Notes: a model not told the origin generated them from the letters alone. A stretch of 24,000 nucleotides of DNA from Falsibacillus pallidus (GCF_003350505.1 NZ_QQAY01000014.1:1-24000); one strand, 5' to 3'. Positions 4,585 to 23,788 are shown, numbered from the stretch's first letter. Program-made: numbers and translations.

Positions 4585-4617
4585 TAAAAAAGCTCACTCC
4601 ATTATCAGAGCAAGCTT
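4585..4617 (-). terminator. Probable terminator of the sigB operon
   Basis: The minus strand reads AAGCTTGCTCtgataatgGAGTGAGCTTttttatattt. The stem is 10 bp (two G-U pairs), overlaps the rsbX stop codon and is followed by a T-rich tract. Confidence 0.5.
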
Positions 4618-5201
4618 CCTACAATAAACGTTAAATCGTCTTCTGCATTACTATAGCTTCGTTCCAATTCTTGAGCAATATACTCTAAAGAAAAGGAATC
4701 TTTCAGCAGACTTTTGGTGCTTGAAATCCTTAAACCATCTGAATGGATTAAAAATCTTGCACCTTCTTCAAAGGGATATCGATGGGTACTGAATAGTTGC
4801 GGCCTGCCAGATAAATAACCTGTGACAGGTAGTGGGTAGGTTAATTTACCGGTAGGGGAGTATAAATAGAAGCGGATGTTTCCAACGCAGCTATAAACAA
4901 AATCCTTGGTCTTGAAATAAGCTTTGACAACGGCAACTGCAGCACCGCGTTTATTGAGCAGCACCTGATTGCAGAGCTTCATGAGCGTTTCTACATCTTC
5001 CTCTTTATTCTCCTCTACTACTTGAGCTACAGCTGAAGATGCTTCATTGGCGTATTTTCCGCTGCCTAATCCATCCGCCAGCACGCAAAGGAAATATTCA
5101 TCTGTAGCTGTGAAGTAATAGCTGTCGCCGCACTGTGCTTTACCTGCTTTTGACGTTTGATGCGAAAAGACTTCCACTTCCTTCTGCAAAAGATGGTTCA
5201 T
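4605..5201 (-). CDS. rsbX: RsbX, PP2C-type feedback phosphatase of the sigma-B stressosome pathway
   Basis: The 198-aa protein has a PP2C/SpoIIE-like motif (CGDSYYF...LADGLGSG). It is the last gene of the rsb-sigB cluster, and its ATG overlaps the sigB stop codon (ATGA). Confidence 0.9.
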   Translation of the reverse strand: MNHLLQKEVEVFSHQTSKAGKAQCGDSYYFTATDEYFLCVLADGLGSGKYANEASSAVAQVVEENKEEDVETLMKLCNQVLLNKRGAAVAVVKAYFKTKDFVYSCVGNIRFYLYSPTGKLTYPLPVTGYLSGRPQLFSTHRYPFEEGARFLIHSDGLRISSTKSLLKDSFSLEYIAQELERSYSNAEDDLTFIVGSLL

Positions 5202-15735: not shown

Positions 15736-16204
15736 CGTCTTTCGCCACCCTCGCCAACGCCGATATGGATGACCGCAATTCATCGGCTTCTCTCGTATCA
15801 AGGGCTGGAATATGGTGCGTTGTGGCAGCGGTCGAAACCGTAACTGTCGCAAGATGATATCTTCTCAGCAACGGCCCTTCCACCGTGTCGACATGCTGCA
15901 CCCGGACCATCGGCACTAGTGTTCTTTTTTTGAAAACGATCCCGCTCTGAAGTTCAATCTCTTTCTCACGGACCTCATACCTCCATCTTTTCCATTTCAA
16001 ATTCGGAAAAAGATAGACAAATATGTATACATAAAGGATGCTGACCACACCGCCGCAAAGGATAATCCAAGACGGCCAGTCAAAAATGGAAACAACCGTG
16101 ATGACCCCAAAATATATCGCTAAAATAATCAATGAATGCAGCATCCCCGTTATTCTCCACACTTTCAGGGCTTTATCAGAAATTTTATTCATCGGCTCCC
16201 TCAT
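15728..16204 (-). CDS. ydbS: YdbS-like membrane protein with one bPH_2 (DUF304) domain
   Basis: The 158-aa protein has two TM helices followed by WRYEVREKEIELQSGIVFKKRTLVPMVRVQHVD. It pairs with ydbT, as in B. subtilis. Confidence 0.85.
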   Translation of the reverse strand: MREPMNKISDKALKVWRITGMLHSLIILAIYFGVITVVSIFDWPSWIILCGGVVSILYVYIFVYLFPNLKWKRWRYEVREKEIELQSGIVFKKRTLVPMVRVQHVDTVEGPLLRRYHLATVTVSTAATTHHIPALDTREADELRSSISALARVAKDDV

Positions 16205-16246
16205 CCGCTATACCCCCATTTCTTTCTAGACCTATTCTCTCTTATT

Positions 16247-16272
16247 TACGCATCTACGGGAGGAAAGTTTCA
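16247..16272 (-). promoter_or_regulatory. Sigma-W (ECF) type promoter upstream of ydbS-ydbT
   Basis: The minus strand reads tgTGAAACtttcctcccgtagatgCGTAaataag. This equals the TGAAAC-N16-CGTA sigma-W consensus. From memory, ydbST belongs to the sigma-W regulon in B. subtilis. Confidence 0.65.
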
Positions 16273-16288
16273 CAAAAAAATAAAGGAT

Positions 16289-16315
16289 GCTTCACATGGA
16301 AGCGGCTTTTGACTG
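16289..16315. repeat. Left copy of a 27-bp direct repeat (a degenerate duplicate of the cshA terminator) bracketing repeat element A
   Basis: gcttcacatggaagcggcttttgactg matches 16746-16772 at 25 of 27 positions. Looser similarity extends into the upstream aaaataaa tract. Confidence 0.8.
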
Positions 16316-16717
16316 GGAAGGTGTCTTGAGAAAGTGCCTAGAAAGTGCCTGTCACGCCCCGGATTTTGTCGATTTTTGTAAAATTCAATTGGATCCATCA
16401 ATATGCTTAGCTTGCATTAGGTATATTTAGTAGAAAAAGTGCAAGTGGCGCATAAGATGGTGAGTTTGGCGCATAGCCCCAACCGGCCGGCGCATAGCAG
16501 AGGATTTTTCGCGCATAGAGCCAGAACAGCGGCGCATAGCCGATGGTTTCTGGCGCATAGAGCCTGCAGAAGAGGCTAATCTCCCTTGGAATCCTTGCTT
16601 TTTCGTCATTTAGTCACTCTAACGGACACCATCTGAACCTTTCACCACATCTATATGCTTATTTCGAGGAACATTCACCATCATTTCCACTCATGTCCCT
16701 TCTATTTTCCACCCCAA
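16316..16717. repeat. Copy A of an unclassified ~0.4 kb noncoding dispersed element
   Basis: It aligns by eye along its whole length with 22600-22977 in the same orientation. Exact shared blocks include gtgagtttggcgcatagcccc, accggccggcgcatag, cccttggaatccttgctttttcg, tttagtcactcta and cggacaccatctga. Confidence 0.85.
16447..16560. repeat. Array of six GGCGCATAG motifs at an exact 21-bp period (core of element A)
   Basis: The motif starts at 16447, 16468, 16489, 16510, 16531 and 16552. Variants are ggcgcataa (repeat 1) and cgcgcatag (repeat 4). The 12-bp spacers are unrelated to one another. Confidence 0.9.
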
Positions 16718-16733
16718 TGAACAAAATCAGACG

Positions 16734-16765
16734 AAAATAAAAGCCGCTTCACAAGGAAGCAGCTT
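16734..16765 (-). terminator. Rho-independent terminator of cshA (contains the right copy of the 27-bp direct repeat, 16746-16772)
   Basis: The minus strand reads AAGCTGCTTCcttgtGAAGCGGCTTttattttcg. The stem is 10 positions with one mismatch, followed by a T-rich tail. It starts 8 nt after the cshA stop codon. Confidence 0.75.
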
Positions 16766-16773
16766 TTGACTGA

Positions 16774-18252
16774 TTAGTTATTTTTTTGAGGTCTTTTTCT
16801 TGGCGGTCTGCTAGCAGAAGAACGCTGCTGGTCGCGCCCGTAGCTGCGCTGTCCTTGACCGGATCCTTGAGGCTTCCCTCTTCTGCGGGAGCGGCCGTTG
16901 TCTCTGCTTCCGCTTCCGCTACCCCTTCTGGATGGAAGAGGAGCTTCTTCGGTAATTTTGATTGCTGAACTGTCAGGCTCTTTTGTAAGAACTTTCAATG
17001 CAGCTGCAGCAATTTGCTCAGGAGTGAAATTCTCAAGCAATTTTTCGCCCATTTCCTGATAATCCTGCAATGAATTTGCTTCGATGGTTTCAGCTAATTG
17101 ATCGTAAGACGCTTTTAGCAGTCCTTCAAGTGCTTCTGACCAAGTCGGCGGCTTCATTGGAGTCATGCGCTTCTTAGTAGTCTGTTCAACTACTTTCAAG
17201 TAGCCCATTTCACGAGGGCTGACAAATGTCATTGCCACACCTTCTTTACCTGCGCGTCCAGTACGTCCGATACGGTGGACATAGCTTTCCGGATCTTGCG
17301 GGATATCGAAGTTGTAGACATGTGTGACGCCTGAAATATCCAGACCGCGAGCTGCAACATCCGTTGCAACCAATACATCGATTTTGCCTTCTTTGAACTT
17401 TTTAAGAACAAGCAGGCGCTTCGCTTGGCTTAGATCTCCGTGGATCCCTTCTGCCAAATATCCTCTTAAGGAAAGAGCATTTGCAAGTTCATCTACACGG
17501 CGCTTCGTACGGCCGAATACAATCGCAAGCTCAGGGGATTGCGTATCAAGCAAACGGGATAATACATCGAATTTTTCTCTTTCTGGTACTTTCACATAGA
17601 ACTGCTCGATGTTGGATACTGTCATTTCCTTTGCTTTTACTTTTACAAGCTCAGGATTCTTCATGAATTTCTCAGCGATGCGGCGGATTGGATCCGGCAT
17701 TGTAGCTGAGAATAGAAGTGTTTGGCGATCTGCCGGTACATTGGAAAGGATGGACTCGATATCTTCTTTGAAGCCCATGTTCAACATTTCATCCGCTTCG
17801 TCCAAAATCAATGTGTGAACATTATCTAAACGCAATGTGCGTCGTTTGATATGGTCAAGGATACGTCCTGGAGTTCCTACAACAATGTTAGGGTTTTTCT
17901 TAAGGGCACGGATTTGGCGCTGGATGTCCGCTCCTCCATATACAGCCAATACACGTGCACGGCTGTCTTGGCCGACTTTATATAATTCTTCAGAAACCTG
18001 AATGGCTAATTCACGGGTAGGGGCAATAATGATCCCTTGTACGTCATTGCTTTTTGGATCAAGCTTCTCGATCAGTGGAATACCAAAAGCAGCGGTTTTC
18101 CCTGTACCTGTCTGTGCCTGGCCGATGATGTCCTTTCCTTGTAGACTCAAAGGAATCGTTCCGGCTTGAATTGGAGTTGCTTCTTCAAAACCCATCCGTT
18201 TAACTGACTTCAACGTTGTTGGGCTTAAACCTAATTCTGAAAACTTCGTCAA
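16774..18252 (-). CDS. cshA: DEAD-box ATP-dependent RNA helicase CshA
   Basis: The Q motif, [15 protein letters not shown] and [10 protein letters not shown] motifs are all present, along with an Arg/Gly/Ser-rich C-terminal tail. It uses a TTG start downstream of AAAGGAG. Confidence 0.95.
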
Positions 18253-22476: not shown

Positions 22477-22599
22477 CTCTTTCCCCCAACATGTTTTTTC
22501 ACAAATCCCCTAAGCCATTTTACTATGAAATAGCCGCGGATAATAGTCTGATTATTCAATCTAGAATAAAAAATGAGGCTTCTTGCCTAAGTGCGTACA

Positions 22600-22977
22600 G
22601 GAAGGTGACTGTTACGCCCCGGGTTTTGTCGATTTATGTAAGAACCACTGGAATTCATTGATATGTGCAGATTTCTATAAGTTTATTTAGTCCAAAAAGT
22701 ACCAGTGGCGCATAGGAGTGTGAGTTTGGCGCATAGCCCCTACCGGCCGGCGCATAGTCGAGGGATTTTCGCGCATAGAACCAGAGAAATCGGTGCATAG
22801 CCGACTGATTCTGGCGCATTAGAGCCTCAGGAAACGGCTATTTACCCTTGGAATCCTTGCTTTTTCGACGTTTAGTCACTCTACCGGACACCATCTGATC
22901 CAATTGCCACATCCATAAGCCTATTCCGAAGAACATTCGCACTAATTTGACCCCATCACCCGCCAATTTCCTCACCA
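22600..22977. repeat. Copy B of the unclassified ~0.4 kb noncoding dispersed element
   Basis: It is collinear with 16316-16717 in the same orientation, with the same block order and the same 6-unit array. Confidence 0.85.
22707..22822. repeat. Array of six GGCGCATAG-type motifs at 21-bp spacing (core of element B)
   Basis: The motif starts at 22707, 22728, 22749, 22770, 22792 and 22813. One interval is 22 bp. Repeat 5 reads ggtgcatag and repeat 6 reads ggcgcattag. Confidence 0.9.
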
Positions 22978-22981
22978 AATA

Positions 22982-23011
22982 GAAAAAATCCGCCAATCAC
23001 CTCGGCGGATT
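22982..23011 (-). terminator. Rho-independent terminator of the 257-aa gene
   Basis: The minus strand reads AATCCGCCgaggtgattGGCGGATTttttctatt. The stem is 8 bp and perfect, followed by a T-run, 3 nt after the stop codon. Confidence 0.85.
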
Positions 23012-23014
23012 CCT

Positions 23015-23788
23015 TTATTTTACGAAAACCTTCCATTCCTTGGTTTTCCGGTCAAAGACTATCTTCCCATCAAGGGGATTAGCCGTTATATTTTGGTATT
23101 CTTCGTACATCTCATCCATATTGACGAAATCGCCGATGACCCAAATGGGAATCTCGATTTTCGTCCTGCTCTGTTCTGCCTTTTCGATCGAAAATAAGAG
23201 TCCTTCTTTCATATCTTCTATAAATGGATAAAGAATTTCTTTCGGCATCACAGGGTAATCTTTTCGCTTTTTCAGTCCAAGAAATGATTTTTCACCTTTA
23301 AAGCTGCTGAGTTTATGGGATAGAGCGGTGCCAAGTACTCCGTAAAAGTCATCCATTGAACGATAATACGTTTTATTGAACCAGCCGTCATCCTGCGCCA
23401 GATACGCAAATTGATTATTCAATTTCCGGTAGAAAGGCAGTCTGAGGTGGCTTTTTGAATGGCTTAAATATAATAATTCAGCGATTTCCTGCCCTTCAAG
23501 CTGATCAAGGGATTCTTCGTCCTCAAAATCCAGCCAGCAGAACCCGCCATATTGATGCACTTCTTCCTTTAAGAGCTTATCGATTTCTTCATCCCCGACA
23601 TATTCTAAAAGCGTATGGCGGTTAAATTCACCATCTTCAAAACGATGTTGCAGCAATAAAAGCTTCCCCGGCAGTTTGGGGACACCTGACATGAACTCTT
23701 TGAATTGAAGCCCATGTGATACGACATATTGATCTGAATGGTTTACATGAACATAGATGAGATTCCGCACATCCTGTGAATGTTTCAA
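23015..23788 (-). CDS. Hypothetical cytoplasmic protein, about 257 aa, acidic, no recognised domain
   Basis: This is a long clean ORF. I set the start at TTG 23788 (MKHSQDV), 7 nt after GGAGGG. The ORF-track TTG at 23818 reads through that RBS. Confidence 0.65.
   Translation of the reverse strand: MKHSQDVRNLIYVHVNHSDQYVVSHGLQFKEFMSGVPKLPGKLLLLQHRFEDGEFNRHTLLEYVGDEEIDKLLKEEVHQYGGFCWLDFEDEESLDQLEGQEIAELLYLSHSKSHLRLPFYRKLNNQFAYLAQDDGWFNKTYYRSMDDFYGVLGTALSHKLSSFKGEKSFLGLKKRKDYPVMPKEILYPFIEDMKEGLLFSIEKAEQSRTKIEIPIWVIGDFVNMDEMYEEYQNITANPLDGKIVFDRKTKEWKVFVK

Follow-up and report, generated by a model that had tools for sequence, protein, structure and literature searches.

BOX elements in Streptococcus pneumoniae are arranged as boxA-boxB(n)-boxC with units of ~45 nt, and are predicted to fold into stable RNA/DNA structures, while the MIRU of Mycobacterium consist of near-identical units of 40–100 bp which vary in number and often include short open reading frames (ORFs) overlapping neighbouring genes. 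Iterons and centromere-like repeats are places where proteins assemble along one helix face, and the same holds for the 9+12-bp sites (nine conserved bp plus 12 variable) that are used by LytTR regulators, among them AgrA and ComE. [quoted passage not shown] Here we describe a repeat element in a 24,000-nt stretch of Falsibacillus pallidus DNA (GCF_003350505.1, NZ_QQAY01000014.1:1–24000; referred to below as the window), with copy A in the spacer between cshA and ydbS (16205–16773) and copy B in the spacer between the genes for a 267-aa protein and a DUF4937 protein (22477–23014). An earlier note made from the sequence alone had proposed these as two copies of a dispersed non-coding element; to this we add the recognition of an array and a left block as the family core, the duplication of a terminator, the maintenance of the repeated word, and related arrays in other Bacillales.

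The element resembles STAR in being a Firmicute, intergenic and multi-locus repeat with a short GC-rich direct repeat and variable spacers, in having loci that are stable within lineages under apparent purifying selection, and in the conserved 'start signature' beside the array, and for neither is a transposase or a function known (PMC3532100). It differs in its core of 8–9 bp (GGCGCATAG), spacers of 12–13 bp, strict 21-bp period, six fixed units and extra conserved blocks, and shares no sequence similarity with STAR. In being dispersed, intergenic and non-autonomous, with tandem internal units set between two end modules, the repeat recalls BOX, but there is no structure signal in the F. pallidus element and no sequence similarity. 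BrickBuilt also has an intergenic tandem array with flanking modules, but its repeats are contiguous without a variable spacer and it has small inverted-repeat ends, whereas the F. pallidus element conserves 8–9 of every 21 nt and lacks terminal inverted repeats; it is further set apart from MITEs by a duplication of 46 nt, not 2–10 bp, and by there being no related insertion sequence (IS) in the Falsibacillus DNA examined. In MIRU, as here, the tandem units are scattered among intergenic regions and take the orientation of the genes beside them. Iterons, operators and LytTR sites are similar in having direct repeats about two turns apart with bent or T-tract DNA flanking them, and six units at 21 bp fall within the 21–22-bp spacing by which iteron direct repeats are recognised. 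However, there is no adjacent rep, regulator or partition gene, the chromosomal copies are many, with six sites in place of two, and their motif does not resemble known LytTR boxes. The neighbouring A/T-rich stretch is not conserved (it is 20–80 nt long and inconsistently A/T-rich), so that a replication function is not indicated. CRISPR arrays, with their repeats of about 23–50 nt and unique spacers of similar length, differ too, as the core here is 9 nt, the 12-nt spacers are positionally conserved between copies, and there is no cas gene among the neighbours. The element therefore fails the defining sequence and spacing features of STAR, BOX, BrickBuilt and MIRU, and its nearest analogues are interspersed intergenic tandem-unit repeats.

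Two copies of a dispersed repeat family

The two ~0.4-kb spacers are true copies of an undescribed non-coding repeat family of F. pallidus. Copy A (16316–16726) and copy B (22600–22982) can be aligned block by block with a mean column identity of 83% over ~420 columns, and every exact block listed in the earlier note, which had matched ~400 bp of the cshA–ydbS gap to 22600–22977, was found in both. The parts of the two copies and the hairpins that border them are listed here in window coordinates, with comparisons to a second strain, F. pallidus FAL1 (CP158866.1).

16282–16310, minus strand: T2, a hairpin resembling a terminator, located towards ydbS from copy A and inside a 46-nt duplicate (16270–16315) of the cshA terminator region
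16329–16372, plus strand: left block of copy A, an 11-nt tandem (AGAAAGTGCCT x2) and then GTGCCTGTCACGCCCCGGATTTTGTCGA (half-palindrome and T-run)
16373–16446, plus strand: variable spacer between left block and array, A/T-rich in copy A and 20–80 nt in other copies
16447–16560, plus strand: array A, six GGCGCATAG-type units in three 42-nt super-units; the minus (gene) strand reads YTATGCGCS
16561–16577, plus strand: small hairpin AGCCT-gcagaag-AGGCT beside the last unit of array A
16583–16636, plus strand: right block of copy A, specific to the subfamily found in the window
16637–16726, plus strand: right arm of copy A, showing moderate conservation relative to copy B and no homology to the FAL1 arm at the same site
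16739–16767, minus strand: T1, the cshA intrinsic terminator, 12-bp stem and T-run, adjoining the right end of copy A; conserved in FAL1
22564–22588, minus strand: T', a weak terminator-like hairpin and T-run on the DUF4937 side of copy B; conserved in FAL1
22600–22632, plus strand: left block of copy B (GGAAGGTGACTGTTACGCCCCGGGTTTTGTCGA)
22707–22822, plus strand: array B, six units, the fifth being GGTGCATAG and the last GGCGCATTAG
22823–22898, plus strand: hairpin (22823–22839) and right block (22845–22898) of copy B
22899–22982, plus strand: right arm of copy B; its homologue in FAL1 is the 'old' arm kept at site B
22983–23015, minus strand: intrinsic terminator of the 267-aa gene, 14-bp stem, adjoining the right end of copy B

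Each copy contains six GGCGCATAG-type units, as had been claimed. Those of array A start at 16447, 16468, 16489, 16510, 16531 and 16552 with a period of exactly 21 nt, and those of array B at 22707, 22728, 22749, 22770, 22792 and 22813, one step being 22 nt and the last unit carrying a 1-nt insertion. Because T-rich and GC-rich spacers alternate, Tandem Repeats Finder gives the period as 42 nt. The 8-mer GCGCATAG occurs nine times on the plus strand of the window compared to 0.32 expected (0 of 100 shuffles reached nine), and all nine occurrences are inside the two arrays; a polar genome word of the Chi/KOPS/SRS type was rejected, as there is no GCGCATAG outside the arrays in the 24-kb window. 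The small hairpin noted earlier is present in both copies (16561–16577 and 22823–22839), and other members of the family have weak hairpins of unrelated sequence at this position. The right block, described as ~60 bp and highly conserved, is likewise found in both (16583–16636 and 22845–22898) but is confined to the window's subfamily, with other arms in FAL1, and a short motif CCYTG-n-TTTYCRTGCYATTTT located ~25 nt from the array is all that is common to the whole family. The left arm is variable as proposed, with a spacer of 20–80 nt across copies, but is not constantly A/T-rich.

One genome of each species was scanned for GCGCATAG occurring three times at 12–14 nt spacing, which gave 103 genome matches including seven loci from FAL1, although many of these and of a further 120 metagenome matches were unrelated perfect tandem repeats holding the 8-mer (told apart by spacer identity). 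A profile built from the arrays and run on ~150 kb of Falsibacillus DNA chosen for containing arrays found 13, among them window A and B, the two orthologous FAL1 sites (L105; loci are given here by L number), and further FAL1 loci at L018, L019, L036, L072, L101 (two adjacent arrays), L102 and L086. The same six unit positions are seen in 11 of the 13 arrays and the spacers are positionally homologous, the first being GAAGGTGGTTTTC or a close variant in most copies, and these arrays therefore derive from one six-unit ancestor and not from unit-by-unit growth. Conserved across the whole family is a module formed by the array and the left block (GTGCCTGTCACGCCCCGGnTTTTGTCGA), the latter also being present in L036, L102, L101, both L105 copies and L086, where it is a full palindrome between an A-run and a T-run. 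L086 (1855–3281) holds a three-unit array remnant directly abutting IS3-family orfA/orfB genes, and this IS3-family element appears to have truncated the array and not to be part of it. A second type of repeat, the palindrome GGGGACAGGTTYCTTGTCCCC, lies beside some of the FAL1 elements (L102:4190–4215 and about 4600–4700; L018:3290–3320), with none in the window.

The element is absent from both orthologous sites in Falsibacillus albus (L106) and in a related metagenome-assembled genome (MAG ERZ25039495, L107), in which site B is a clean 154-bp spacer with a terminator and promoter. The additional FAL1 loci and this absence in F. albus and the MAG therefore indicate a dispersed family, not a segmental duplication. 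The latter had been considered in the earlier note, but the genes flanking the two sites are unrelated (cshA and ydbS at one, those for the 267-aa and DUF4937 proteins at the other), there are many further family members, and relatives have empty sites. Nor does it match a known element: we found no Rfam match, no plasmid or phage blastn match and no description in the literature. At the gathering score, Rfam 15 matches in the window were restricted to the tRNAs and the 16S end, and at E<=10 there was nothing meaningful in 16200–16800; blastn against plasmid and phage collections produced no match; viral contigs gave zero matches or a handful, whether the query was the right block, the three-unit pattern or the palindrome; and searches of the literature on the motif, the genus and intergenic repeats returned no account of the element, but STAR and BrickBuilt as analogues and otherwise primer noise.

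In gene orientation, each copy begins directly after the intrinsic terminator of the upstream gene (16767–16739 and 23015–22983) and stops ahead of a second terminator-like hairpin. The cshA terminator region is doubled around copy A, where 16270–16315 and 16727–16772 are 83% identical over 46 nt, and it therefore seems that the insertion duplicated the cshA terminator, a feature missed earlier. T2 is terminator-like on both strands and degenerate in FAL1, where the proximal copy of the terminator at this site is intact and the distal copy is decaying. At copy B and at the FAL1 tsaD site, the sequence past the distal hairpin or T-run matches that following the single terminator at the empty site (for copy B, the match beyond T' is to the sequence following the lone terminator at the L107 empty site), which fits terminator duplication but less clearly than copy A. 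No terminal inverted repeats were found besides the palindromic terminators, the sole inverted pair bracketing copy A being the duplicated terminator itself, and there is no match between the two ends of the element (GGAAGGTG... and ...CAAAA). The earlier failure to find terminal inverted repeats or a transposase was borne out.

At site A, the arm between terminator and array is non-homologous between the window strain and FAL1, while site B in FAL1 retains a window-type arm and one unit followed by ~230 nt of a different arm, and modules have therefore been exchanged or nested over time. At nine of ten independent sites (the exception is L018), the strand that reads YTATGCGC is the sense strand for the gene upstream. 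In FAL1 this is also the leading strand on both replichores, and as gene and replication orientation coincide, transcription and replication are not separable as the cause.

Maintenance of the core word and readings of the array

The proteins of the window strain and FAL1 are 96–98% identical and the two share 77% identity at 660 four-fold degenerate sites. When both orthologous arrays are compared, the TATGCGC cores of 7 nt are identical at 81 of 84 positions (96%) and the spacers at 86 of 141 (61%), a difference which is significant for core against spacer (Fisher P = 2e-10) and for core against four-fold sites (P = 5e-6), and the sole change tolerated in the 8-mer is C/T at the first position. 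Judged by this comparison of orthologous arrays, it is the core motif itself that is maintained, with either purifying selection or continual homogenisation keeping six intact words at each locus. As the core is kept while the spacers drift, this is not the behaviour of inert transposon fossils.

Our preferred reading, which we hold tentatively, is that of a modular STAR/BOX-like interspersed repeat which acts at the DNA level by binding a sequence-specific protein, because a 9-bp word is repeated at two turns of the helix at six fixed sites, with phased T-tracts and conservation of the word only. The functional core would be the 126-bp array with its six 9-bp sites (GGCGCATAG, or YTATGCGCS on the gene strand), which a spacing of 21 bp, or two helical turns, would place on one face of the helix, with T-tracts in phase every 42 bp. 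The array may then serve as a docking platform along which a putative sequence-specific DNA-binding protein binds cooperatively. It travels with the left block (the palindrome or half-palindrome GTGACnGTCAC-GCCCCGG and then a T-run) and with exchangeable arms. Copies are located just past the intrinsic terminator of a gene, with the whole or part of the target terminator doubled around the insert at the better-preserved sites, and spread may have been by terminator-guided recombination or template switching, no transposase having been seen. Binding could set up a roadblock or an insulator past the terminators, or else a site with a topological or organising function, although we can only infer any effect on the neighbouring genes.

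There is a precedent for proteins reading the word in such a layout, in the TTGCGCATAG direct repeats upstream of genes for winged helix-turn-helix (wHTH)–Fic proteins in Proteobacteria and Acidobacteria. At L082, L095, L046 and L042 (also L176), three TTGCGCATAG direct repeats are immediately upstream of genes for proteins of 460–480 aa with an N-terminal winged-helix region and a Fic domain, and in L082 and L095 the direct repeats are followed by an inverted pair, TTGCGCATAG-N4-CTATGCGCAA. This looks like an autoregulatory operator based on the same 8-mer. We also noted by eye a likeness to the DnaA box (TTATCCACA) and, in the left block, to the Spo0A box (TTTGTCGAA-like).

A number of observations weigh against a protein-binding platform. 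No candidate binding protein was found among the neighbours of the arrays and no gene family recurs beside them, the 56 neighbouring proteins being ordinary housekeeping ones (LeuS, SerS, RpsD, Zwf, FabZ, TsaD, CshA and others) with no recurrent DNA-binding family, and the NERD and GIY-YIG genes each being seen at one site or one orthologous group of sites. A purely DNA-level platform does not require an orientation bias at nine of ten sites, which could instead stem from a role as RNA, from the way in which the element inserts or from the replication strand. Gene conversion between the copies could also make the core look as if it were under purifying selection. It should also be noted that the copy count comes from ~150 kb selected for arrays and does not give a genome-wide number or distribution, and that in the window strain itself two copies were seen directly, the additional loci being from FAL1.

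An element acting as RNA is unlikely, though it would make sense of the shared orientation relative to the upstream gene at nine of ten sites and of the terminator-like hairpins which bracket the element in gene orientation. The array would be transcribed by read-through or as a small RNA of its own, and its six unstructured CUAUGCGCS (or GGCGCAUAG) motifs might bind or titrate an RNA-binding protein as a sponge or a 3' untranslated region (UTR) element, just as the STAR repeats of Staphylococcus occur in 3' UTRs; in Paenisporosarcina (L007), where a terminator is found 21 nt after the array and a same-strand terminator 90 nt before it, the array may be transcribed. The window arrays, however, are downstream of strong terminators with 12- and 14-bp stems, and no sigma-70-like promoter was found inside the element (sigma-B, extracytoplasmic function (ECF), sigma-54 and sporulation-sigma promoter readings made by eye were inconsistent across copies). 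There is also no sign of structure on either strand. Single-sequence folding of both strands of copy A was no better than for shuffles (z = 0.04 and +1.08), and RNAalifold on both strands of 11 copies recovered only invariant GCGC:GCGC pairs, with covariation terms of -0.18 and -0.34, so that the covarying RNA structure raised in the earlier note is not seen. A structured RNA was rejected on these z-scores and covariation terms and the lack of an Rfam match. Furthermore, other genera have the opposite strand (GCGCATAG) as the sense strand after the terminator, and a single RNA reading therefore does not fit all of the families.

We consider it similarly improbable that this is a purely selfish, non-autonomous mobile element with no host function, in which the repeats would be the sites for a transposase or recombinase encoded elsewhere. 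Many copies in intergenic positions, presence or absence between species, module swapping, and nested or tandem copies would all be expected of such an element, and the BrickBuilt MITE of P. gingivalis with its 23-nt minisatellite provides a precedent (PMC4596501). The doubled terminator does resemble a target-site duplication, but at 46 nt it is far longer than known target-site duplications, the only terminal inverted repeats are the palindromic terminators, there is no linked transposase, and the nearby IS3 genes interrupt an array. Copies fixed since the F. pallidus lineage split have kept 96% of core positions while their spacers drift.

A polar replication-fork barrier related to the RTP/Ter system of Bacillus subtilis is very improbable. 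One unit is similar in about 10 of 13 bases (CTATGCGCCAAAC) to the Ter core CTATGTACYAAAT, and array orientation in FAL1 follows the replichore at nine of ten sites, but the latter is confounded with gene orientation. RTP-family proteins are more widespread in the Bacillaceae than the B. subtilis group, with homologues (PF02334) in Metabacillus, Priestia, Sediminibacillus, Domibacillus, Ureibacillus and others, yet none of the 88 matches in a word-indexed search (many unnamed) was attributed to Falsibacillus or Bhargavaea. The arrays are spread over 0.26–3.6 Mb rather than clustered at the terminus, and the two closest to where the terminus is expected, at 1.827 and 1.862 Mb, would, if polar, exclude forks from the intervening 35 kb without forming a trap (assuming that oriC is near coordinate 0).

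A remnant or unrecognised gene for a heptad-repeat peptide (21 nt being seven codons, with MRxxxxx or AH(S/R)xxxx repeats) is scarcely credible, for while array A can be read through without a stop on both strands (60 aa for the minus strand, 46 aa for the plus strand) and a 92-aa ORF was called in a FAL1 copy, the open frames arise because the pyrimidine-rich strand is poor in stops, with several frames open at once, no start or ribosome-binding context is conserved, and 20- and 22-nt steps break the frame in copy B, L018, L036, L072 and the long metagenomic arrays. Although ~88% of the steps between units are exactly 21 nt, these other steps mean that all reading frames are broken and a coding function is therefore rejected; as the earlier note had found, there is no ORF common to both copies, and the 60-aa minus-strand ORF of copy A is broken in copy B by the 22-nt step. 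The 92-aa ORF in FAL1 (L105:11592–11870), which is from the source annotation and has no Pfam hit, is probably a spurious call in a stop-poor array.

Genomic setting and related arrays in other Bacillales

The genes around both copies are all on the minus strand and in an order known from Bacillus, with the window running from the start of the 16S rRNA gene through tRNA genes, tex, the sigB operon, mazEF, alr, acpS, ydbT/ydbS, cshA, an alpha/beta hydrolase gene, murF, ddl and the DUF4937 gene to the 267-aa gene (the 5' end of the 16S rRNA gene is at 1–74 and 11 tRNA genes are at 181–1480, all on the minus strand). The window CshA is 100% identical to F. pallidus RDI39874.1 / WP_114746644.1, and the Logan contig L104 is identical to the window across both of the spacers compared. 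Upstream of ydbS, and directly after the T-run of the distal hairpin T2, there is an ECF (sigW)-type promoter on the minus strand (TGAAAC-N16-CGTA, 16225–16262) which is conserved in FAL1, F. albus and the MAG. In F. albus, uvdE (encoding a UV damage endonuclease) is found between cshA and ydbS where F. pallidus has the repeat element (L106:11604–12584).

Related arrays were seen in other genera, with GCGCATAG as the core word common to F. pallidus, Bhargavaea, Paenisporosarcina, Halobacillus and uncultured Bacillaceae-like metagenomic contigs. All of the Bhargavaea species sampled have three to five GCGCATAGAA units with variable spacers which end in a perfect palindrome, CCGCGCATAG-N4-CTATGCGCGG, a layout that is classic for iterons with an inverted-repeat operator behind them. 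These arrays (e.g. L022:5669–5718, L045, L048 and L103) start 13–70 nt after a terminator. At several orthologous sites they are retained across five or six species whose flanking sequences have diverged, and one site immediately follows a gene with a NERD domain. Paenisporosarcina and Halobacillus also have variable-spacer arrays of GCGCATAG, and arrays of 6–26 units are found in metagenomic contigs of 41–46% GC with ordinary Bacillaceae-like genes, in which 132 of 148 steps are exactly 21 nt and the others occasionally 19, 20, 24 or 43. We note that the Ga0180431 and Ga0180435 contigs (L145:875–1428, L147, L160, L178, L185 and L229) have 14–26 units with purine-rich variable spacers, and that the pyrimidine-rich strand is open in all three frames, inviting false gene calls. 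A gene for a CwlJ-like cell-wall hydrolase lies downstream of GCGCATAG arrays in Bhargavaea (L066/L079) and in Virgibacillus sp. MSJ-26 and a Bacillota MAG (L013/L068), and its position beside arrays in two lineages may be a coincidence or an old conserved site.

In GCGCATAG orientation, a same-strand intrinsic terminator is present 13–94 nt upstream of the array in 17 of the 24 evaluable cases outside Falsibacillus, a count which includes orthologous Bhargavaea sites and so is not one of independent cases. The F. pallidus left block, with its hairpin half and T-run, has the same position relative to the array as the terminators in these other genera, and a common syntax of terminator and then array is therefore suggested. 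The 8-mer flanks differ, however, being tTtT[g/c]GCGCATAG[a/c] in Falsibacillus and aA[G/C]CGCGCATAGAA in Bhargavaea, and common descent of the two sets of arrays is therefore not established.

Two sites in the closer relatives are also relevant. In the tsaD–metY spacer of F. albus (L238:3660–3790), the tsaD terminator is immediately followed by six (G/A)CGCAAAAA units with a 20–21-nt period. This spacer contains two GCGCATAG-type arrays in FAL1 (L101:1891–2399) and none in the MAG (L239:3367–3756), and the F. albus array may be an orthologous array with a changed core or an independent type. In the MAG, the cshA–ydbS spacer (L107:11572–11690) has three to five CTCGCRACTTT units with a 21-nt period where copy A sits in the window; the sigW-type promoter of ydbS, ~250 nt downstream, has a -35 region (TGAAACTTT) to which this unit is similar.

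It is conceivable, though rather doubtful, that the F. pallidus element is one branch of a wider undescribed class in the Bacillales, in which strict 21-bp, terminator-proximal arrays with cores of 8–9 bp have co-evolved with a dedicated putative DNA-binding protein. Such arrays would be cis-sites acting just beyond terminators, for example as a roadblock or insulator, or as a topological or chromosome-organising element. In practical terms, the arrays yield spurious small ORF calls, and CRISPR finders and similar detectors might flag them. Dispersed intergenic repeats such as STAR have been known in Firmicutes for decades without a function, and the F. pallidus family offers an unusually clean handle on these, with a short information-rich word, strict two-turn phasing, six fixed sites, and maintenance of the word but not the spacer. 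If a dedicated protein exists, this would be a new cis/trans system at the ends of genes in the Bacillales.

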